The notes beneath the pieces are model-generated. The model saw nothing but the letters and a program-made list of their open reading frames with translations, ran no database searches and was not told where the DNA came from. Shown piece after piece: positions 4,580 to 19,619 of a stretch of 64,000 nucleotides of DNA. A program made the translations under genes and the position numbers. Each line of letters begins with the position of its first letter. Position 1 is the first letter of the stretch. This DNA comes from Tubulanus polymorphus (lineage: Eukaryota > Animalia > Nemertea): assembly GCF_964204645.1 (NCBI RefSeq), contig NC_134025.1, positions 5,394,001 to 5,458,000 of the forward strand, read 5' to 3'.

Positions 4580-7041
4580 CTATTGCAATTGTTGGTAAAT
4601 GGACGAATCTTGAGAAATCTCTACTTTGTAAATCTGGCCATTGATCTTCAAAAGATCGCCAGATGAGATATCATGAATGTCCGTTTCGATTATAGTTATC
4701 GGTTCACTATCGAACTGTGAAGGAGACTCTCTACTGCTGGATACTGACTCGAGACCTTTCACAGCTGCAGCCGTATCGTCAACTATCATCGAAACAGTTT
4801 CCCTACAAGAATCGCCAAAGGCTTTAAGTACTTTACCATCATCGGCAGTTCCAGTCTCTGAATTACTCATTGTTTTTGCTTTAAAGATTGTTAACTCTTC
4901 ATTTGTGTTGGAACATGACCGGGACTTATGATTTCGCATGTGCGTGCACAAGTTCTGCTTTTTTTTCGTCACGAAATCGCAAACAATGCACTTATAATCG
5001 GAAGAAATGCCCGACTGCTGATAGTTATGCTGTCCTTCTAAATGTTTATACAAATTAATCAATTTATGAAATTTCATCGCGCATAAATTACAATGAAAGC
5101 ATTTCATTTTGTTAGAGTAGTCAGATCGAACATAGCTTTTCTTCTTGGTTTGAACATTTGTTTCTATATCTGACGCGGTACTTGCATAAGTAACACTATC
5201 TGAATTGAAATCTGGGTTGGTAGTACTAAAAGGCACATCATGCGTTGATGTACCATTTGTTGGATATGATATTTCTAAATCCTTATTTGATGCATCATCT
5301 ATTTTAGGTTGTTGGGAATCCGTTTGAAAAACTTTTGTTTGTTCATCAATATTGTGCACATCGCTACTGACACAAATTGACAATTCTGAAGTACCAGTAC
5401 CGGTAGTTCCAACATTTTCACAGTTTTTATGACGTGTTTTTACATGGCGAGTTAAGTGTTCTTTTTGCGATGCTTTATAGCTACAATAAGCGCATTCGAA
5501 TGCTCGCTCTTTGGTATGAACAACTGCATGACGCTTCAAACGACTCGCGCAATCAGTTACAAAACTACACTTTTCACAAAACAGTTTCAATTCGGGTCCT
5601 TTTGCGTGAAATTTCATGTGTTGTTTCAGATCTTTCTTATGTGTTGTTTTGAACGCGCAATTTATTTTCGGGCACTGCATTTCCACAGATGGTTCTGAAG
5701 TTGAATTCACGTCCGCGTGCTTCCGTTTCATGTGACTACGAAGATCATAAAGTTCACTTGCACATATGTAATCGCACAGAGGGCATTTGATCTTTTTTTC
5801 CTGAAAGAGTAAATTAAATGCTTAAACAGAGCAAGAATTATAGCAATATATCGTAGTTCAGGGAACATTATAAATTTGTCTTACATCGATCAAGCTATAG
5901 CAAATTTTTCCCAAAAAAAAGATATGTTTTACCTTGTGTTTGTACTGAATATGTCGATTCAGGTGGACCTTCTGACGAAATTTTTGTTCACAAAATTTGC
6001 ATATATGTGGACGTTCATCAGTGTGCGTGATCATGTGTCTTTTCAGATTACTGTTTGTTGTTGTACTAAAATCACAAACAGTGCAGGAGTATGGCTTCCA
6101 TCCTGAAATATCATAAATCAAACATTATTAATCAATTATATCAATCAAACACTCTCTTTTATAAAACATATAACAGCTTTGACAAATCCTTATATCCAGC
6201 TATGGGCATACATAAGTCAATTAACCCTTTCAGAGCTGACTAATTAATACCCTTAGTGCTGGAGATAATCTAAAAGTTTTGGAAGATTCAACCCTTGTGT
6301 GTTGAATTACGGGAATACCACTAAAGTGCGTCTACACCACAGTGCAGTGTATCGTTAGATACTTATATTTCATTAATGTTTGACAGGTGCTGCCATCTTT
6401 CATTAGAGATAAAAACTAATTACTAATTACATCAATACACTGCAGTGCGGTGTACTAGCAAAATCCATCACCGATTTATACACCGCACTGCGGTGTAGAC
6501 GCACTGAAAGGGTTAATGTACAGGCTTTAAATGAAAAATATTTGTTTCTTAAGATTCTGTTACTAAGAAACAGAATTAGGGTATCCATGTAAATTATTTT
6601 GCAAAAAAGAAACTTATCATTTACCATTGTGCAATTTCTGATGTTTATGGAAATTTGTCTGTTTTTCTGTTTTGTAAGAACAATTATTCTGCGGACATTC
6701 AAGAACTTTTTTGCTGTAATTATGATGGCTTGGCACTAATTTGTTGCCTTCTGGAATGGAGTCAGTAGACTGTATAATGGAACCACATTCACCAGATTCA
6801 GCGCCATGTCCATTAAATATTAGGCCTATTTCCAAGAGTTGAACTGGCTATAAGAATAATAAGTAAGATTAATAGACAAATGAATAGTTCTTTGTATGGT
6901 GCTTTTTTGTCTCGAATAACTTACATTTGAGTTAACAACTTCACTTGTACCATCACGAAGAATCCTGACTACCGTGGCGAGTGGCTCTTGTTCTTGATGA
7001 ACTGTTTCTGATACATCCATAGAATTTGCATGACAATGCAT
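4580..7041 (-). CDS. C2H2 zinc-finger transcription factor, about 9 fingers; coding exons 7041-6925, 6847-6625, 6102-5933, 5800-4580
   Basis: GT-AG junctions join in frame (phases 0,1,0). Fingers include CTVCDFSTTTNSNLKRHMITH, CKFCEQKFRQKVHLNRHIQYKH and CAYCSYKASQKEHLTRHVKTRH with HTDERP/HTKERA linkers. Start is ATG 7041 or 7020. Probable non-coding first exon about 7329-7440 (donor GTAAG on - strand). Orthology not assignable. Confidence 0.88.
6225..6512. mobile_element. piggyBac-like MITE (288 bp) in a ZnF intron
   Basis: TTAA on both sides (6221-6224, 6513-6516). Termini CCCTTTCAGAGC / GCACTGAAAGGG (11 of 12 inverted match). An extra internal inverted copy of the right subterminal sequence (AGTGCGTCTACACC...) lies at about 6325-6352. 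Confidence 0.8.
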
Positions 7042-7587
7042 TGATCTTAAAACATACAATTGTAAATTAAGAAAACTTTCCTTAGATTTCTTTTTATATA
7101 TAGTACCTAGAATACTGGGGTCAACTTTTTTGTATCAGGTCCCTGTGGATACGTTTCAAGCATTAATAAGGTTTTTTGGGTTGGAGGAAATTGAATTTTT
7201 TTGTGTTACTTATCTTTGATTCCATCTAACACAGTAGGTAACTTGATTGAGGGCCAATCCCCAGGCCTGATACACTGGGGTGAGATTTAAAAAATAAGAT
7301 TTAGCAACAGCTTCACAGTAATTCTTACCCTAGAAGCTGAAGTGTCAAGTTGACCCAAGTTGACAGGGAAGACCAACGCAACGACCGTGAGCAGAACGAT
7401 TCACCACCGCCCGTCCAGCTGATTATTCTCCCATTGAAATTTTCGGAGCTATCCGTCTTCCACAATTCGATTCAATTCAATTATTCTTTATTGTTCCACA
7501 TGAGCCGGCGGGGTATTCTAGGCGGCGTTGTCGGAGGTTATCAGCTGTGGCGACATATGACATGCATGATTGCACGAAACAGGTTAA

Positions 7588-7662
7588 ACTGCAGCTATGC
7601 AGCATGTCCCGTGAGAGGACCTGGGGCCTGTGACGGGACAAGGATGTCCCGTCACAGGTCCC
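7588..7662 (+). repeat. Left TIR with subterminal hairpin
   Basis: Three copies of TGTCCCGT(G/C)A(G/C)AGG. 7627-7640 and 7645-7658 form a perfect 14-bp stem with a 4-nt loop. Confidence 0.85.
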
Positions 7663-8053
7663 GATGGAAAATGAAAACTTTGCATTTCGTAGACGAAATG
7701 TCGAAAGAAACTGCACTCGATTGGTTACTATGTACACTCAAAATAATGTTAAGAACATGTTAATAATCGAAATTTGTTCGTAATTTTATTATTTCAGATC
7801 AATGATATCATCAAATCGAAACATTAAATGTAATAATGAAGATCGGATCAAGAGAAGACAGAACCACAGCTATCGAAATTTCAATTTTTAGTGTATAGAC
7901 TGACTCATACTATCGAAAATAAAGTGAATGTATCTTGACAATTTTGGTGCCAATGGTGTTAGTAACCGTTTGTTAAGCGTTACACTGCAAACAAAAGTAA
8001 AAGTGGAGGGGGCAACTTAATGGCCCTAGATCACTCTCGAGAGAGAATTCAAA

Positions 8054-9857
8054 GTGAGGGACCCGATTCAACACACTGTCCCGTGAGAAGACCCGATTCA
8101 ACTTACTGTCCCGTGAGAGGACCCGATTTCAAATACTGTCCCGTGAGAGGACCCGATTTAACACACTGTCCCGTGAGAGGGCCCAGTTTCAAATAATGTC
8201 CCGTGAGAGGGACCGATTCAACACACTGTCCCGTGAGGGGACCCGATTTTAAATGCTGTCCCGTGAGAGGACCCGGTTCAACACACTGTTCCGTGAGAGG
8301 GCCCGATTTTAAATACTGTCCCGTGAGAGGATCCGATTTTGAATACTGTCCCGTGATAGGGCCCGGTTTCAAATAATGTCCCGTGAGAGGGCCCGATTCA
8401 ACACACTGTCCCGTGAGAGGACCCGATTTTAAATACTGTCCCGTGAGAGGACCCGATTTTGAATACTGTCCCGTGAGAGGGCCCGGTTTCAAATAATGTC
8501 CCGTGAGAGGGCCCGATTCAACACACTGTCCCGTGAGAGGGCTCGATTTTAAATAATGTCCCGTGAGAGGACCCGATTCAACACACTGTCCCGTGAGAGG
8601 GTCCGGTTTTAAATACTGTCCCGTGAGATGACCCGAATCAACTTGCTGTCCCGTGAGAGGACCCGGTTCAACACACTGTCCCGTGAGAGGGCCCGATTTT
8701 AAATAATGTCCCGTGAGAGGACCCGATTCAACACACTGTCCCGTGAGAGGACCCGATTTTAAATACTGTCCCGTGAGAGGACCCGGTTCAACACACTGTT
8801 CCGTGAGAGGGCCCGATTTTAAATACTGTCCCGTGAGAGGATCCGATTTTGAATACTGTCCCGTGATAGGGCCCGGTTTCAAATAATGTCCCGTGAGAGG
8901 GCCCGATTCAACACACTGTCCCGTGAGAGGGCCCGATTTTAAATACTGTCCCGTGAGAGGACCCGATTTTGAATACTGTCCCGTGAGAGGGCCCAGTTTC
9001 AAATAATGTCCCGTGAGAGGGCCCGATTCAACACACTGTCCCGTGAGAGGACCCGATTTTAAATACTGTCCCGTGAGAGGACCCGATTTTGAATACTGTC
9101 CCGTGAGAGGGCCCGGTTTCAAATAATGTCCCGTGAGAGGGCCCGATTCAACACACTGTCCCGTGAGAGGGCCCGATTTTAAATAATGTCCCGTGAGAGG
9201 ACCCGATTCAACACACTGTCCCGTGAGAGGGTCCGGTTTTAAATACTGTCCCGTGAGATGACCCGAATCAACTTGCTGTCCCGTGAGAGGACCCGGTTCA
9301 ACACACTGTCCCGTGAGAGGGCCCGATTTTAAATAATGTCCCGTGAGAGGACCCGATTCAACACACTGTCCCGTGAGAGGACCCGATTTTAAATACTGTC
9401 CCGTTAGAGGACCCGGTTCAACACACTCTCCCGTGAGAGGACCCTATTTTAAATACTCTCCCGCGAAGGAACCCGATTTTAAATACTGTCCCGCGAGAGG
9501 GCCCGATTCAACACACTGTCCCGTGAGAGGACCCGGTTTCAAATAATGTCCCGCGAGAGGGCCCGTATCAACACACTGTCCCGTGAGAGGACTCGATTTT
9601 AAATACTGTCCCGTGAGAAGACCCGAATCAACTTGCTGTCCCGTGAGAGGGCCCGGTTTCAAATAATGTCCCGTGAGAGGGCCCGATTCAACACACTGTC
9701 CCGTGAGAGGACCCGATTTCTAATACTGTCCCGTGAGAGGACCCGAATCAACTTGCTGTCCCATGAGAGGACCCGGTTTCAAATAATGTCCCGTGAGAGG
9801 ACCCGATTCAACACACTGTCCCGTGAGAGGACCCGATTCAACACACTGTCCCGTGAG
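8054..9857 (+). repeat. Left 30-bp minisatellite array, about 60 units
   Basis: Consensus ACACACTGTC/AAATACTGTC CCGTGAGAGG ACCCGATTCA/ACCCGATTTT. Variant blocks recur at 510-bp (8351 and 8861) and 630-bp (8621 and 9251) spacing. Confidence 0.98.
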
Positions 9858-10290
9858 CCAAAAGTTGTTGAATGAGTATCTTTATGACAAATAGTGAATA
9901 TTGGTGGAATATTTCTCTATTTTGATTTGTAGGTGTCCGGCGAACGACAGGACCAAGACGATGACGTGGGCGATGATATTTCAAACGTGAGTCAAAAGTT
10001 GTTGAATAAATATCTTTATGACAAATAGTGAATATTGGTGGAATATTTCTCTATTTTGATTTATAGGTATCCGGCGAACGACAGGACCAAGACGACGACG
10101 TGGACGATGATATTTCAAACGTGAGTCAAAAGTTGTTGAACGAAAAGTTGTTGAATAAATATCTTTATGACAAATAGTGAATATTGGTGGAATATTTCTC
10201 TATTTTGATTTATAGGTGTCCGGCGAACGACAGGACCAAGACGATGACGTGGGCGATGATATTTCAAACGTGAGCCAAAAGTTGTTGCAT
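9853..10290 (+). repeat. Three tandem intron+exon units (134-149 bp), each with a 54-nt phase-0 exon
   Basis: Exons 9933-9986, 10067-10120 and 10216-10269 encode VSGERQDQDDDV(G/D)DDISN. Each is flanked by TAG and GTGAG, with near-identical introns. Confidence 0.9.
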
Positions 10291-12522
10291 GAAAACTTCA
10301 ATGTACAATATGAAAAAATGATCAAATATTGAAAAAAAATATATTTTACTGTATGAAATTACAGGTGTCCGCAGAAGACGGCTGGCTTAGATTGTATGAC
10401 GACGTCTTTGATATACAAAATCTCACCGAGGCAGAACAGATTAAAATCAGTATGAAGTTATCACTCAAAGAGTCACATCTCCGTCAGAGTGCAGAGAAAA
10501 GGCTTCAATCTCTAGTTTCCGAATCCAATCTGAATATTGTGTCGGTCGCGGATGACGGAAGCTGCTTTTTTTGCAGCTGTTGTCGAACAATTGAGGCGAG
10601 AAAACGTTGACATAACAGCACATGAGCTACGATTAATGGCTGTTTCATACCTTTCTGAAAATAGGTATTGCGCTGTAAGTAAATTAAAAACCCATTGATA
10701 TATCAAGACAGCACTACAATAAATATTATATACACATATTATGGTTTGCTTCGCTGGATGGGGCTGATAAGGCCGACTTTCTGGAGTCTCATCTGACATG
10801 GCCATTATATCTTAATAAAATGAGACAAAGAACCACCTGGGCCGATGCTTTAGTTGTCCGTGCCACAGCTGACTGTTAAGGGAGACCAATGGTACTATAT
10901 ACCAGTTCAGAGCAGTCAAACATCAATATGATAGATCCTGTCGAATGTAAAAATGCTGAACCCATCTTACTAGGGCATATTCAAGATATTCACTACGTTG
11001 CCCTAGTAAAAAGGAGCTATATCCCAAGACGACGCGTGTCAGTCGAGAGTGTCAGAGGGTAACCTTGCGGCCTAACCCACGGAAGACGGTAAGTTGATAG
11101 TATATGCCACCCCTTCTGACTATTTGGCAAAAATAATACAGCCATCAGAAGCCTTGTTCATGTCAGCTAAGGGTTAATTAATTGAATTTCATAGCGTCAA
11201 AGTGACAGTTACCTCTGAGAACCGCAGAAAAAAAGAAGACGGGTTGTCGATAAAGGAATCTACTGCGTTTGCAAGAAACCAGATGATGGAAGGTAAAGCT
11301 TAATTATATCATATAAGATCAGGCTGTTGTTTTAAGATTCAGTCGTCATTGTCGAAAAAATCTTTTACCTTCACTTTCACTTTCACTTACCTTCACTTTC
11401 AAAATTTTCTGCATTTGCATTTTAGGAAGTATTTGCAATGCGATGAATGTAGTGGGTGGTTCCATCCGAAATGTATTGGTCTGAACGAAGATACTGTGGA
11501 GAAAATTGACTATAGATGCGAAACGTGTTTTCAGGTAAGCGATGAACTAAAAAAATATTTTGATCAAATAAGCTATGCCTATATCCTTGCTATGCTATCC
11601 TTTTATACAATGTGATTGCATTCTTTTTATATAGGTACCTAAACGATTCATTAAGAGTCAGGTATGGAATCCGATACATAATGCATACGAAACTCTTGCC
11701 ATTTTCCACTAGAAAGTAATGAATCAAATGTTTTTCTTTTCGCAACTTGGCGCGGTTGAATATCACGTTTCTCGTATAATTAATGCCGAGATAAAAGACA
11801 AGTCTCACCAGTTTGTTGAATTTTTCAAACTTTTGTTGATAATATACAATCTTTGGTTTCAGAAGGCCGGAATTCAGGAGACATTTGGACTTGATTAACA
11901 AAGACCATGAAAGAGCCGAAAAAGAACTGAAAGGATATGGCTATGGGCTTTTAACTGATGGGGTAAGCATTGATAACAGAAAATATGAAATGCGTACAAA
12001 TAAATGAGCTTTCTTTCGATCATCGTAATATTCAATATTTTAAAGGGCCATGCATATCTCTATAGTGTAATGAAATCATACGTCAGCCCTACCTTTGCGG
12101 ACAAATCGTAAGTATATACATGAATCAGACGTGAAGTTTTTTTACTATATTTCGAAATAATAATCAATTCATTTCAATTACAGGAAACCATATTCAACTC
12201 GCTACATGACCCTCCGACAACATCATTCTAAAATGCTGAATTCAGTTTTTAAAGAAGGAAAGACGTAAGTTCATTCTCATCTTCTACTGCTAATTTCTTA
12301 AAAGAATTTCATCCATGTTATATTCATTGTATTTAAATATTTTTCAGGTCAGCAGTAACGTATGTTAATGACGTTTTGCTTAAAGAGGCCATTTGTTTAT
12401 TGGTGTCAACCTACCGAAATATCACATACAACGAGGCTGATATTCTTGGAAGAAGAACAGAGGCCAAAAAACTAAAAGATGTACAACGACTTATGTCCAA
12501 ATACTTCTTGCCAGATTATTGA
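9933..12522 (+). pseudogene. 5'-truncated spliced cargo gene: UIM - OTU deubiquitinase - PHD finger - PWWP3A/MUM1 C-terminal-like domain
   Basis: UIM-like LTEAEQIKISMKLSLKES. OTU motifs VADDGSCFFAAVVEQL...HELRLMAVSYL, WPLYLNKMRQRTTWAD and ILLGHIQDIHYVAL. PHD YCVCKKPDDGRKYLQCDECSGWFHPKCIG...YRCETC (11261-11534, split by an intron). Last exon YVNDVLLKEAICLLVSTYRNITYNEAD, stop 12520-12522. Lesions: T7 frameshift 10566-10572, TAA 10877, TAA 11060, TGA 11216, no canonical acceptor near 10757. Confidence 0.85.
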
Positions 12523-13449
12523 AGAGTGAAGCAGTTTTCGATTCTTAAATGGGAGCTGTTGTAGATTGGTTATCCCGTAATGATTGTATTCTATGGAATA
12601 AGTTTTCTTGTTGCGATGAATTTTTGGATTGCTAGAGATGGTCTTTGCTGAATTTTGGTAATGGTTTTAATAGGAACCAGATTGTGACATGGATGTTTGA
12701 ATTGTTGAAATGCTGTCCAGTCTTCTAATAGATGTGTGTAGTATATAGCCTATAGAAGTTCTTTGCAATGATGTTTCAGAAGTTATGAATGATGGTTGAA
12801 AGATTCCAGCCGGGGCCGAGATGGTATTGTAAATTGTTGTTAATTAGTAGATCGTTTTATCTGCCTGGTTTGTTGTCGATGTCTTATGCTGTGTACTACT
12901 TCGTGTTAAATATTATTTTTGTATTGTGTCTTAACAGACAAGGGCGTTTTCTGTCATCCAATATGAAATGATAATTTTTGGTTCAAATTATAATACATCT
13001 ATCCGGAATTGGGAAATATTGCTGAAGAGTTAAAGGGGAAATATGAAAGAATTGATGATAACCTTTTTTTACCGTGTAAAGTAATAATTAATAATTAAAT
13101 GATAAGTAATAATTTAGTTTGGCGACAAAGATTTAGTAATCTAAAATGCTAAATTGATTTCGAATTCCAACGTATGTTGTTTATGTTCAAATATGAATAA
13201 TATAGTCTTCGAATGTAATATGGTTTACAGATTTTGATAAATAAATAACTGAACATAATTTCACATATATACGATTTGTTTTATGTTTTAAGGGGACATA
13301 GCCAATTTGGCTTTTAGTACGTACATCCAGCCATCATTGTACGCATATTGTTGAAATAATAATTTCTTGTTGTAATTTTTATATATGGCAAAAATGCATT
13401 ATCATTATGAGCATGGGACTCAACATTGACAAAGTGGACAATTTCATTA

Positions 13450-16400
13450 GTCCTCTCACGGGACAGTGTGTTGAACCGAGTCCTCTCACGTGACATTCTT
13501 TGAAACCAGGTCCTCTCACGGAACAGTAAGTTGATTCGGGTCCTCTCACGGGACAGTGTGTTGAATCGGGTCCTCTCACGGGACAGTATGTTGAATCGGG
13601 TCCTCTCACGGGACATTATTTAAAAGCGGGCCCTCTCACGGGACAGTGTGTTGAATCGGGTCCTCTCACGGGACAGAGTGTTGAATCGGGCCCTCTCACG
13701 TGACATTATTTGAAACCAGGTCCTCTCACGGGACAGTGTGTTGAACCGAGTCCTCTCACGTGACATTCTTTGAAACCAGGTCCTCTCACGGGACAGTAAG
13801 TTGATTCGGGTCCTCTCACGGGACAGTGTGTTGAATCGGGTCCTCTCACGGGACAGTATGTTGAATCGGGTCCTCTCACGGGACAGTATTTAAAATAGGG
13901 TCCACTTACGGGACAGTGGGTTGAATCGGGTCCTCTCACGGGACAGTGTGTTGAACCGGGTCCTCTCACGGGACAGTATTTAAAATCGGGTTCCTTCGCG
14001 GGAGAGTATTTAAAATAGGGTCCTCTCACGGGAGAGTGTGTTGAACCGGGTCCTCTAACGGGACAGTATTTAAAATCGGGTCCTCTCACGGGACAGTGTG
14101 TTGAATCGGGTCCTCTCACGGGACAGTATTTAAAATAGGGTCCTCTAACGAGACAGTATTCAAAATCGGGTCCTCTCACGGGACAGTGTGTTGAATCGGG
14201 CCCTCTCACGTGACATTATTTGAAACCAGGTCCTCTCACGGGACAGTAAGTTGATTCGGGTCTTCTCACGGGACAGTATTTAAAATCGGGTTCCTTCGCG
14301 GGACAGTATTTAAAATAGGGTCCTCTCACGGGACAGTGTGTTGAATCGGGTCCTCTCACGGGACAGTATTTAAAATAGGGTCCTCTAACGAGACAGTATT
14401 CAAAATCGGGTCCTCTCACGGGACAGTGTGTTGAATCGGGCCCTCTCACGTGACATTATTTGAAACCAGGTCCTCTCACGGGACAGTAAGTTGATTCGGG
14501 TCTTCTCACGGGACAGTGTGTTGAATCGGGTCCTCTCACGGGACAGTATTTAAAATCGGGTTCCTTCGCGGGACAGTATTTAAAATAGGGTCCTCTCACG
14601 GGACAGTGTGTTGAATCGGGTCCTCTCACGGGACAGTATTTAAAATCGGGTTCCTTCGCGGGACAGTATTTAAAATAGGGTCCTCTCACGGGACAGTGTG
14701 TTGAATCGGGTCCTCTCACGGGACAGTATTTAAAATCGGGTTCTTTCGCGGGACAGTATTTAAAATAGGGTCCTCTCACGGGACAGTGTGTTGAATCGGG
14801 TCCTCTCACGGGACAGTATTTAAAATCGGGTTCTTTCGCGGGACAGTATTTAAAATAGGGTCCTCTCACGGGACAGTATGTTGAATCGGGTCCTCTCACG
14901 GGACATTATTTAAAAGCGGGCCCTCTCACGGGACAGTGTGTTGAATCGGGTCCTCTCACGGGACAGAGTGTTGAATCGGGCCCTCTCACGTGACATTATT
15001 TGAAACCAGGTCCTCTCACGGGACAGTGTGTTGAACCGAGTCCTCTCACGTGACATTCTTTGAAACCAGGTCCTCTCACGGGACAGTAAGTTGATTCGGG
15101 TCCTCTCACGGGACAGTGTGTTGAATCGGGTCCTCTCACGGGACAGTATGTTGAATCGGGTCCTCTCACGGGACAGTATTTAAAATAGGGTCCACTTACG
15201 GGACAGTGGGTTGAATCGGGTCCTCTCACGGGACAGTGTGTTGAACCGGGTCCTCTCACGGGACAGTATTTAAAATCGGGTTCCTTCGCGGGAGAGTATT
15301 TAAAATAGGGTCCTCTCACGGGAGAGTGTGTTGAACCGGGTCCTCTAACGGGACAGTATTTAAAATCGGGTCCTCTCACGGGACAGTGTGTTGAATCGGG
15401 TCCTCTCACGGGACAGTATTTAAAATCGGGTTCCTTCGCGGGACAGTATTTAAAATAGGGTCCTCTCACGGGACAGTGTGTTGAATCGGGTCCTCTCACG
15501 GGACAGTATTTAAAATCGGGTTCTTTCGCGGGACAGTATTTAAAATAGGGTCCTCTCACGGGACAGTGTGTTGAATCGGGTCCTCTCACGGGACAGTATT
15601 TAAAATCGGGTTCCTTCGCGGGACAGTTTTTAAAATAGGGTCCTCTCACGGGAGAGTGTGTTGAACCGGGTCCTCTAACGGGACAGTATTTAAAATCGGG
15701 TCCTCTCACGGGACAGTGTGTTGAATCGGGTCCTCTCACGGGGCAGTATTTAAAATAGGGTCCTCTAACGAGACAGTATTCAAAATCGGGTCCTCTCACG
15801 GGACAGTGTGTTGAATCGGGCCCTCTCACGTGACATTATTTGAAACCAGGTCCTCTCACGGGACAGTAAGTTGATTCGGGTCTTCTCACGGGACAGTGTG
15901 TTGAATCGGGTCCTCTCACGGGACAGTATTTAAAATCGGGTTCCTTCGCGGGACAGTATTTAAAATAGGGTCCTCTCACGGGACAGTGTGTTGAATCGGG
16001 TCCTCTCACGGGACAGTATTTAAAATCGGGTTCCTTCGCGGGACAGTATTTAAAATAGGGTCCTCTCACGGGACAGTGTGTTGAATCGGGTCCTCTCACG
16101 GGACAGTATTTAAAATCGGGTTCCTTCGCGGGACAGTATTTAAAATAGGGTCCTCTCACGGGACAGTGTGTTGAATCGGGTCCTCTCACGGGACAGTATT
16201 TAAAATCGGGTTCCTTCGCGGGACAGTATTTAAAATAGGGTCCTCTCACGGGACAGTGTGTTGAATCGGGTCCTCTCACGGACAGTATTTAAAATCGGGT
16301 TCCTTCGCGGGACAGTATTTAAAATAGGGTCCTCTCACGGGACAGTGTGTTGAATCGGGTCCTCTCACGGACAGTATTTAAAATCGGGTTCCTTCGCGGG

Positions 16401-16836
16401 ACAGTATTTAAAATAGGGTCCTCTCACGGGACAGTGTGTTGAATCGGGTCCTCTCACGGGACAGTATTTAAAATCGGGTTCCTTCGCGGGACAGTATTTA
16501 AAATAGGGTCCTCTCACGGGACAGTGTGTTGAATCGGGTCCTCTCACGGGACAGTATTTAAAATAGGGTCCTCTCACGGGACATTGTGTTGAATCGGGTC
16601 CTCTCACGGGACAGTATTTAAAATCGGGTTCCTTCGCGGGACAGTAATTGAAATAGGGTCCTCTCACGGGACAGTGTGTTGAACCGGGTCCTCTAACGGG
16701 ACAGTATTCAAAATCGGGTCCTCTCACGGAACAGTGTGTTTAATCGGGTCCTCTCACGGGACAGTATTTAAAATCGGGTCCTCTCACGGGACATTGTGTT
16801 GAATCGGGACCTCTCACGGAACGGTAACTTGAATCG
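13450..16836 (-). repeat. Right 30-bp minisatellite array, about 113 units, inverted relative to the left array
   Basis: Unit TCCTCTCACG GGACAGTGTG TTGAATCGGG is the reverse complement of the left unit. Runs of 90-bp trimers. A 1290-bp higher-order duplication (rare variants at 13621 and 14911; 13901 and 15191). Confidence 0.98.
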
Positions 16837-17091
16837 CGGGTTCCGTTGTAAAATCCTGCGTGAAAAACGTGCATTCATATCCCCTATTGTCCCCCTGGCC
16901 CTGCAGTAAATTAGAATTTTTCGGTAGGCCCTTATGTATTTATAAATGAAATCAAAATGGAAAATGTAATAATTACAATCGATAGTTGAATTTATTTATT
17001 CATAATCGTTATAGGCAGAATACATAAGAATATATAAGGGACTCGAAACCGCTAGCATTGGAATCGACGTTTCATGTATGAATTCTACATT

Positions 17092-17152
17092 TGTCCCGTG
17101 AGAGGACCCATGTCCCGTCACAGGCCCGGGTCCTCTCACGGGACGCTGCAGT
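17092..17152 (-). repeat. Right TIR with subterminal hairpin
   Basis: 17093-17109 and 17128-17144 are a perfect 17-bp inverted pair enclosing a third motif copy. Ends GCTGCAGT followed by TTAA. Confidence 0.85.
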
Positions 17153-17196
17153 TTAACTCATATGGATTGCACCAAAATGATGAAATACATCGAGAA

Positions 17197-18579
17197 ATGC
17201 TAAGATTTGGCCGTTTAATAGGTACCCAAGTTAGAAGAATGGAGCCTCGCATGAAAATCACCATCAAGGATGTTAGTAGTGGTAAGGTTGACGTAGGCCG
17301 CTGTTAGTGTTAAATCAGTTTTAACCTCTCTCTGTTCTAACCAATCAATCTTTTGCCTTTTTGGTGGTAAGGCTTCTTATAATCGGATTTTACTAACCAA
17401 CAATGTGGTTTGTGAAACTATCCGATCGTGAACCTAAACCAAAGACATCTTCTGACTTGGGTTCAATGATTTGCCAGTACGGGTTGGTCATTGATACGGT
17501 ACTTCCATTCACTATCGATTAAATTGTGACATCCCTGTATTCTTTCTTATTTCATGATATATCACTGACTTATTGAATTATCAAGCCTTAAACAATCAAT
17601 TCATTCACAATTCACTGCAATGTTTCTAATTCAAATTATATTTGTTCAAATTAATGCTTAAGTTTGATGTATCTTTCAGATGAATGTATCGTTCAAGCAA
17701 CTGAGACTCTGAACAGAGGAAATATTATTGCAATTCCAACTGACACCATATATGGTGTAGCAGGGCTTGCTCAAAATAGTGATGCGATCAGTAAGATATA
17801 TGAATTAAAGAACAGAAATCCAGAAAAACCGATTGCTATTTGTGTGGCAGATATTGAGGATGTATTTAAGTATGTTCTGTTTTTTGATTATCAAAGGTTT
17901 TTGATATATGCTTGGTTTAGAAAATTTTATGTTGGATTTTCCAGATGGGGTAAAGTAACGCTTAGTATCAATCAATTACATGAATTGCTTCCCGGACCCG
18001 TCACCTTACTGTTTGAGAGAACGAATGCTTTAAATGCAGATCTCAATCCCAAAACCAGCATCGTAGGAATCCGCATACCAGATCACAATTTCGTTCGTCA
18101 GCTTGTAAGATGTTGTGGTGGACCACTAGCACTGACTAGTGCCAATATCAGCTCTACCCGCAGTACATTAGCCATTCAGGTAGGCAACTGGGTTTGTAAT
18201 GAATTTTACTGAATTGAAAATTACTGCAGGTAATCGCATTACAACTAGATGATAACTTTATTAGCAGCATTTCATTTGCCATTGAATCTATAGGAATTCA
18301 AAGATATCTGGCCGAAATTAGATATGGTTTGTGATGGTGGTATATTAGGAGACACTTTAGAATCTCGTGCTGGATCAACTGTCGTTGATCTCTCTAAGCA
18401 GGGCCAATTCAAGATTGTAAGAGAAGGAAGGTAAGATTATCATACACATTTTTGAATGGAATCTTTCACTTATCGTTATTAAAACAATTAAATCTATCTA
18501 TTCCAGTGCATACAAGGAAACTGTAAATAAACTGGTCAAAAACTTTAATCTACAAGACACCACACAACCAGATTCGTGA
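17197..18579 (+). CDS. YRDC: Threonylcarbamoyl-AMP synthase (YrdC/Sua5 family), 239 aa; exons 17197-17281, 17680-17869, 17945-18179, 18294-18430, 18507-18579
   Basis: Motifs IAIPTDTIYG, IYELKNRNPEKP, LLPGPVT, VGIRIPDH, LALTSANIS and GSTVVDL. Exons total 720 nt in frame. N-terminus MLRFGRLIGTQVRR resembles a mitochondrial presequence. Confidence 0.95.
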
Positions 18580-18988
18580 CACACATAGTGACTAGTCAAC
18601 ACCACTTATCCTGTGATAGACAGTTTTATAAATGATTAATAACATTATGATCTAGGCTTTGTGTTTAATAAACCATCTCGGATGCTGGGTTTGCATTTCA
18701 CAGAAATTGAATAAAAATCCAATGCAATGACAATGTCAGGCAACAATGAAATAAGGATTTACTTTTATTTTATTCAAATATCTGATGATAGACACGTATG
18801 TATAATGTACAGACATGACTTGTAATAATAAACAGTTTTCAGGAATCACAAGTGTTTTTTTCATACTGTCCCCATGGTGTGGCTCCATTTGGGGCCAGTG
18901 ACATCCTACTTGTAAACCCATTTCGTTGGTTCTACAACATGCAGACAAACTGGTTCTGATTTGGTCTATGTAAGTTAGTCAGATTTTG

Positions 18989-19315
18989 TCAGGAGTCCTG
19001 TTTCTGTTTATTGTCTCGTTCTGCTACTAGGATCTTAGTCCATTCTATTTGATCCTGAAGATTTTTTAGATTTTGGGTCTTTTTCATTGCTTGACGCTCC
19101 ACATCACGGTAAACTCCTTCTCTTAACCTCTGAAAATGAAGTTTGAGGTAAATTTAGAACATACATTGGGTTCTACTCTGACTGATGGGCAACCAGTCCG
19201 TGATGTGTAGCCTACTAACCTCTCGCTCGGTCTTTTGTTTGAAATGCACATAAACTATGATACCAGTAGATACGATGATGGAGCCACCTAGAGTCACCTT
19301 CGAAGCCAAAGACAT
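18989..19315 (-). CDS. PET117: Cytochrome c oxidase assembly factor PET117, 78 aa; exons 19315-19220, 19129-18989
   Basis: MSLASKVTLGGSIIVSTGIIVYVHFKQKTERE|RLREGVYRDVERQAMKKTQNLKNLQDQIEWTKIL... has the PET117 pattern: TM segment, VHxxQ, LRxGVxRDxERQ. Confidence 0.92.
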
Positions 19316-19619
19316 CTGAAAAAATAGGGTCGGGTATATCAATTGTAATCTTTCCGGTCCGCATCGTTTTTGACAGCCGATTGATAACCACGAGGTGCTG
19401 CCACCTATGCAGTGTGAAACCACCTTAACTGTCAATGATCGGTTATTCAATAAATGCTTAAACCGACTGAGGCATCAAATTAAGATAATTTGTTCAATTG
19501 ACCCATGAATTAGTCTCATAATTACATTCGGGCATAATTACATTCTATTTTGATAGATAAAATCATAAAAAACCTTCAATTTCCTTTTTGAGCGCTCTGC
19601 GACCTTGAGATTTTATATC

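Follow-up and report, generated by a model that had tools for sequence, protein, structure and literature searches.

A probable decayed OTU-PHD gene in a multi-copy foldback-type transposon of the nemertean Tubulanus polymorphus

In the accessible parts of the description by Bao, Kapitonov and Jurka (2010, PMC2836005), Ginger1 transposases carry an OTU or a Ulp1 domain, one of them (Ginger1-9_HM) combines Ulp1 with a PHD finger, and OTU and Ulp1 domains are reported from Helitrons and MULEs, respectively. A second account (PMC9741609), as far as its available sections go, describes Helitron VTD deubiquitinases as active, states that no transposon OTU had been tested for catalysis as of 2022, and proposes that the OTU and VTD domains of Helitrons and Helentrons shield transposition proteins. 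Foldback-type ends are found in several superfamilies, and the foldback-type elements described in the portions of the literature available to us use P- or Mutator-type transposases. Here we report a locus in a 64,000-nucleotide stretch of the nemertean Tubulanus polymorphus (RefSeq assembly GCF_964204645.1, contig NC_134025.1, positions 5,394,001 to 5,458,000 of the forward strand; this whole stretch is called the window, and all coordinates below are counted from its first letter). The locus is probably the decayed multi-exon gene of a foldback-type DNA transposon that is 9.6 kb long and present in several copies. The ancestral protein is likely to have been a nuclear OTU deubiquitinase with a PHD finger of the type that reads trimethylated lysine 4 of histone H3 (H3K4me3). 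The gene is the only one of the element.

How does this element compare with those already described? With Ginger1 it has in common a cysteine protease domain (OTU or Ulp1 in Ginger1) encoded in its own protein, a PHD finger (present in one Ginger1 family), introns, and a 4-bp target duplication (a putative one here), to judge from the available text of PMC2836005. In Ginger1, however, that text has the protease fused to a Gypsy-type integrase and the target as CCGG or CCGT, whereas here the flanks are TTAA, the ends are long arrays, and no integrase open reading frame was found within the element. Helitrons and Helentrons likewise place a deubiquitinase-type domain on an invertebrate DNA transposon (PMC9741609), but they are rolling-circle elements with a RepHel protein, without inverted arrays and, in the accessible part of that account, without any PHD finger described. 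The Drosophila FB, Galileo, Tetris and Tm1 elements are nearest in structure, with long terminal inverted repeats made of tandem units, structural variation between copies and many non-autonomous copies; as far as their published descriptions were available, they differ from this element in belonging to the P or Mutator superfamilies, with other target duplications, and no OTU-PHD gene appears in those descriptions. We know of no OTU-PHD gene among foldback-type elements, and the architecture was not described in the literature that we consulted on OTU-PHD transposon genes and on TTAA foldback elements. Since OTU- and Ulp1-type proteases on transposons, one of them with a PHD finger, are already known, this element is a modest variant.

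The limits of the element were set at 7588-17152 (9,565 bp), because its termini are inverted repeats and TTAA lies directly outside both ends. Its structural features are as follows:

7584-7587, no strand: TTAA at the left terminus, a putative target-site duplication (a matching TTAA follows the right terminus; seen in this copy alone).
7588-7663, + strand: left terminal inverted repeat with three copies of the 17-bp motif TGTCCCGTSASAGGNCC (84% identity over 61 bp to the reverse complement of 17095-17150).
8054-9857, + strand: left array of 30-bp units, inside intron 1 of the gene (58 motif matches).
13450-16836, - strand: right array of 30-bp units in inverted orientation (84 motif matches).
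17092-17152, - strand: right terminal inverted repeat with three motif copies (alignment to the left end; read depth falls beyond it).
17153-17156, no strand: TTAA at the right terminus, mirroring the left one.

The terminal inverted repeats are 60-70 bp long, and their first 13 bases are common to both ends. The 17-bp motif is the core of the 30-bp array unit and is repeated in the termini as well; it occurs 148 times in the 64 kb, every time within the element (3 + 58 + 84 + 3), against an expectation of 0 from 100 shuffles. Read from left to right, the element thus consists of a terminus, a unique stretch, an array, an inner part, an inverted array, a second unique stretch and a terminus, and these long inverted terminal regions of tandem repeats, with the motif of the termini, give it a foldback-type structure. 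The piggyBac and Kolobok superfamilies both target TTAA, and the flanks are compatible with either. At its inner end the left array (...CCCGTGAG) runs straight into the intron sequence that trails each of the acidic exons listed below (window positions 9852-10295).

The gene was modelled from stop-to-stop reading frames and splice signals. Twelve of its 14 exons were checked for borders and phase, and in this checked part the introns are GT-AG and 37-201 bp long; exon 1 and the exon at 11746-11802 were placed via paralogues, the latter also via genomic reads. The paralogues are three RefSeq models of the same species (P0127-P0129) on three other chromosome-scale contigs (21.6-32.1 Mb). The original prediction had begun the gene at 9933 and viewed it as cargo between the arrays. 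The region 9933-12522 turns out to hold exons 2-14, with exon 1 far to the left of it, and the left array, instead of lying outside the gene, is enclosed entirely by intron 1 (7748-9932). With a start 76 bp in from the left terminus and an array in its first intron, the gene is the element's own and not inserted cargo. The exons, all on the + strand, are:

7664-7747, + strand: exon 1, with the start codon (MENENF...) and the donor AAT/GTTAAG (translation; tblastn, 27 of 29 residues identical to the start of P0129).
9933-9986, 10067-10120 and 10216-10269, + strand: three 54-nt acidic exons with AG/GT borders, phase 0 (frames and splice signals).
10365-10674, + strand: 310-nt exon with a UIM-like helix and the N half of the OTU domain, including the Cys loop DDGSC (+1 frameshift in a T7 run at about 10560-10566).
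10712-11058, + strand: C half of the OTU domain with the His-Tyr motif, about 347 nt, borders uncertain (in-frame TAA at 10877-10879).
11220-11292, + strand: exon with the basic stretch KKRRR and the first two Cys of the PHD finger (splice signals).
11426-11534, + strand: C half of the PHD finger, Cys-Cys-His-Cys-Cys-Cys (Pfam PHD, E 7.5e-9).
11635-11661, + strand: 27-nt exon (VPKRFIKSQ), present also in P0127 and P0129.
11746-11802, + strand: exon (LGAVEY...) with acceptor AA and a lost donor (reads and RefSeq paralogue models).
11863-11962, 12046-12107, 12184-12264 and 12348-12522, + strand: four exons of the C-terminal domain, ending in the stop codon at 12520-12522.

The acidic repeats of the original prediction are therefore real as exons, each forming with its intron a 134-149-bp tandem unit of which this copy has three and P0129 two. 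A derivation of the acidic exon from the array units was considered and rejected, since the local alignment score of 14 was reached by 538 of 2000 shuffles. Ten of the 14 exons are present in at least one of the RefSeq models. Three of the four C-terminal exons are 100% identical to P0127/P0128, and for the final exon an uncharacterised Tubulanus polymorphus RefSeq protein is identical over all 57 residues. The models lack or truncate the two OTU exons, and they skip the exon for the N half of the PHD finger. It may be added that in P0127 the acidic exons and the beginning of the UIM exon (9934-10452) are read in another frame (MIFQTCPANDR...), after which the model passes straight to the 27-nt exon; it seems to be the annotation's way around a broken gene and not a real protein.

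The copy in the window is damaged at several points. A +1 frameshift in the T7 run falls directly after the catalytic Cys, and the TAA interrupts the C half of the OTU domain in frame. The exon at 11746-11802 has AA for an acceptor (at 11745, AG is the reading of 25 of 30 genomic reads), and behind 11802 this copy lacks 26 bp that in other copies supply an in-phase GT donor. At 10712 it has one base more than 30 of 47 reads.

These reads come from a whole-genome Illumina run labelled as the same species, in which copies were counted at a likeness of at least 85%. A single-copy flank (17494-19600) has a depth of about 6.8. Within the gene, depth reaches about 59 in 9860-11779 and about 34 in 11780-12499; in the right unique stretch and terminus it is 108-168, and it falls from about 96 to about 10 just past that terminus (17126-17217). 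The corresponding copy estimates are about 5-9 for the gene region and 16-25 for the right end. Multiple dispersed copies are thus indicated both by a read depth 5-25 times that of the flank and by the paralogues on three contigs. In ten genomic reads, array sequence with a few other letters added leads directly into position 11491 within the PHD exon, so some copies are internally deleted, and five reads skip 213 bp, from 12411 to 12625.

Could this nonetheless be a non-mobile host gene family, spread by segmental duplication, with satellite arrays lying in intron 1 and the 3' flank by chance? RefSeq does list the paralogues as ordinary uncharacterised genes, and the borders were read for one copy only. 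We nevertheless consider such a history highly improbable, because the ends are inverted repeats with a common 13-bp tip, motif triplets and TTAA on both sides, read depth drops steeply at 17126-17217, the right end has about twice the abundance of the gene region, and the copies lie on different chromosome-scale contigs.

The OTU domain was compared by phmmer with a library of 1.84 billion representative proteins, the Tubulanus polymorphus RefSeq proteins included. The C half gave 115 matches at E <= 1e-3, the best at 1.2e-10. Thirty-five of them (all 29 of at least 234 residues and six short ones) were scanned with Pfam, and an OTU domain was found at E <= 0.001 in 31 and above the gathering score in 28. 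Among solved structures the nearest is OTUD5 (PDB 3pfy/3tmo), to which the C half aligns over 81 residues (E 9.2e-4), a span that includes the catalytic His-Tyr motif, with IHY on IHY; host OTUD5, for its part, has neither a PHD finger nor acidic exon repeats. For the N half, a profile was built from the N-terminal halves of 21 relatives that had been retrieved by the C half only; these N-terminal parts played no role in the retrieval, and the profile is therefore an independent test. Read through the frameshift with an X, the N half scored 36.6 bits against it, compared with 4.6 for the best of 2000 shuffles, and DDGSC fell on the DGNC loop of the relatives. By these comparisons both halves are homologous to the OTU family. 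Three sequence searches were negative or below threshold: the C half reached 16.5 bits against the Pfam OTU cutoff of 23.3 (PF02338, E 0.012-0.013, the domain being scanned as broken halves), the N half bridged with an X had no Pfam OTU match, and word-based protein searches with the C half returned no match. The prediction of an OTU domain with an Asp-Gly-x-Cys loop and a His-Tyr motif is borne out, both motifs aligning to those of OTU relatives.

The comparison of the C half with solved structures also brought up LRP4 (E 2.8e-8). This match was rejected, as it sums six weak matches of one query stretch to the repeated YWTD blades of LRP4, of which the best has an independent E-value of 3.5, and that stretch also aligns to OTU proteins. 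The resemblance of 10748-10852 to YWTD beta-propeller blades of LRP4/LRP6 was judged to be chance or compositional.

The nearest named OTU relatives are from a brittle star, an oyster and a freshwater mussel. Partner domains among the relatives are a kinase, Mab-21_C, LRR-Roc-COR with GT4-conflict, PDZ, UBA with UIM and a single instance of an integrase. The closest invertebrate relatives (P0003, P0051, P0083, P0099, P0113 and P0115) are fused to Mab-21_C, LRR-Roc-COR or a 'GT4-conflict' glycosyltransferase, architectures typical of immune or conflict systems.

This company raises the question of whether the gene is a host gene, or a chimaera, picked up by a foldback element (transduplication, as in Pack-MULEs) and left to decay without any role in the element. 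Most of the relatives are host-like, a PHD or PWP3A-B_C domain was seen in none of the 35 that were scanned, the element encodes no transposase, and the copies seen have common OTU lesions, all of which would suit capture. On the other hand, the gene is complete, running from a start codon just inside the terminus through to a stop codon, and in the descriptions available several transposon superfamilies repeatedly possess native OTU/Ulp1 modules, in one case together with a PHD finger. Nor is any parent visible. A single-copy host parent, which the original prediction had itself set against an element-borne gene, was not found in the library, where the highest identity of any protein to the C half of the OTU domain is 44%. 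Capture is in our judgment unlikely, though it deserves to be kept in mind.

The PHD finger is a significant match. Its C half alone scores 35.9 bits against the Pfam cutoff of 24 (PF00628), and joining the two PHD exons by their coordinates gives the full pattern C-x-C-x11-C-x2-C-x4-H-x2-C-x14-C-x2-C, so that the Cys4-His-Cys3 finger that had been predicted is indeed complete over two exons. A word-based protein search with the PHD exon gave no match. Doubt about the two domains could have come from insignificant profile matches; the E-values of 7.5e-9 for the PHD finger and 1.2e-10 for the C half of the OTU domain (phmmer) leave little room for it. Among solved proteins the C half matched 34 PHD sequences at E <= 0.01, led by KDM5B (PHD3), SHL, BPTF, PHF2, EBS, KDM5A and PHF8 (E 3e-6 to 1e-4). 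PHD fingers of these proteins read H3K4me3; with these as the best matches, histone binding by the present finger is predicted. The Trp before the His aligns to the Trp of BPTF and KDM5B, and a Tyr stands ahead of the first Cys; both are candidate aromatic-cage residues. One of the BPTF cage positions is Asp here. The basic stretch KKRRR that had been noted beside the finger is present in the exon at 11220-11292.

Two other domains of the original prediction fared less well. Ubiquitin-binding UIM motifs accompany host OTU proteins such as OTUD5 and OTUD1, but the helix ahead of the OTU domain had no Pfam UIM match (PF02809) at E <= 1, and what speaks for it is a similarity of E 0.084 to the UIM region of PSMD4/S5a, made up of two stretches of 7.7 bits each. 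The MUM1-like C-terminal domain is in a comparable position. PWP3A-B_C (PF20886, the C-terminal domain of MUM1/PWWP3A) was the top Pfam match of the region in four scans, yet its scores of 14.8-17.0 bits (E 0.0059-0.029, profile positions 67-120 of 141) lie below the cutoff of 27, and the spliced RefSeq paralogue proteins, at 15.8-17.0 bits (E 0.0059-0.014), are still under it. The resemblance to PWWP3A/B is thus a sub-cutoff one in the C-terminal part, and there is no PWWP domain in this gene. Searches of the C-terminal region against PDB sequences gave nothing meaningful, and the ESM Atlas held no usable match to the last exon or to P0128. AlphaFold2 run on P0128 without an alignment returned an all-helical model of low confidence (mean predicted local distance difference test, pLDDT, 43.2).

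Since the gene is the only one in the element, the protein might itself mobilise it, the C-terminal 180 residues being a new DNA-binding or catalytic module for the 17-bp motif. Retention of this region in all three RefSeq models is in keeping with such a role. Against it, there was no match to a transposase, nuclease or DNA-binding family (DDE_Tnp_ISL3 came up only at E 0.11), the fold prediction is unreliable at pLDDT 43, and the foldback-type elements described so far, within the accessible literature, use P- or Mutator-type transposases. We therefore regard self-mobilisation as very improbable.

We thus return to a foldback-type transposon with a decayed gene of its own. The combination of an OTU domain, a run of basic residues and an H3K4me3-reader-type PHD finger makes a nuclear, chromatin-directed deubiquitinase a fair inference for the ancestral protein. 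Of the function that had been proposed, the domain logic thereby stands for the ancestor; it does not extend to the copy in the window, in which the OTU frame is broken. An intact protein would enter the nucleus by means of its basic stretch, dock on active chromatin through the PHD finger and remove ubiquitin at the docking site, as has been proposed for the OTU/Ulp1 modules of Helitron, Ginger1 and MULE elements. Such removal could shield the proteins of transposition, or oppose silencing or repair that depends on ubiquitin. The copies now seen would be non-autonomous, mobilised in trans by a transposase with the repeated 17-bp motif as its binding site.

Several observations weigh against this interpretation. 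In the first place, an intact ancestor is something that we infer. The original prediction had reckoned with intact copies, and none with an intact OTU domain was found among the read differences listed, in the dominant contig of another run (X2), in the RefSeq models or in the protein library. The X2 contig covers 10245-11000 with one substitution and one gap, both of them away from the lesions, and it therefore shares the OTU frameshift and stop; all three RefSeq models skip the OTU domain. A minority copy with an intact OTU domain may exist beyond the read differences that were listed. Secondly, no transposase open reading frame was found within the element, other copies not having been searched for one, and the TTAA flanks were read on a single copy. 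Thirdly, the C-terminal domain, of about 180 residues as predicted, is without an established family, and splicing was deduced from the genomic sequence and the RefSeq paralogue models, not from RNA. Finally, an integrase accompanies only one of the 29 OTU relatives of at least 234 residues (P0024), and the rest look like host multi-domain proteins, which leaves room for an origin by capture from a host lineage at the low probability given above.

A more ambitious proposal can be built on the same observations. The element would represent a new nemertean foldback family whose sole gene encodes an H3K4me3-docking OTU deubiquitinase and no transposase; intron 1 would contain the transposase-binding array, and a surviving intact master copy would strip repressive or repair-linked ubiquitin at active chromatin, aiding landing in promoters or continued expression there. 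We put this forward as speculation that is more probably wrong than right by a wide measure.

As to its surroundings, the element lies between two exons of host genes, which are divergently oriented:

4580-5821, - strand: C2H2 zinc-finger exon of the flanking host gene to the left of the element.
17655-18212, + strand: Sua5/YrdC-like exon of the flanking host gene (Pfam E 3.9e-34).

From the right end of the element it is about 0.5 kb downstream to the YrdC-like coding sequence; this single insertion is uninformative on target preference. Just outside the element, about 45 bp (17402-17447) are covered about 2,400-fold by the genomic reads, compared with about 6.8-fold nearby, and thousands of reads continue from them into unlike sequence on both sides. 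This pattern suggests a piece of some very high-copy repeat.

Helitron, Ginger1 and MULE, transposon superfamilies unrelated to one another, all include carriers of deubiquitinase or deSUMOylase modules, and the Tubulanus element would be a further, structurally different carrier, from a phylum, the nemerteans, in which transposons have been little annotated. Its union of a protease with a methyl-lysine-reader type of PHD finger lends support to the view that modules of this kind work on chromatin and, if an intact copy exists, the element offers a defined protein for testing it. Because every version seen in this genome is broken, the immediate value of the finding lies in annotation: the paralogues that RefSeq lists as 'uncharacterised' genes of Tubulanus polymorphus would be decayed transposon genes.

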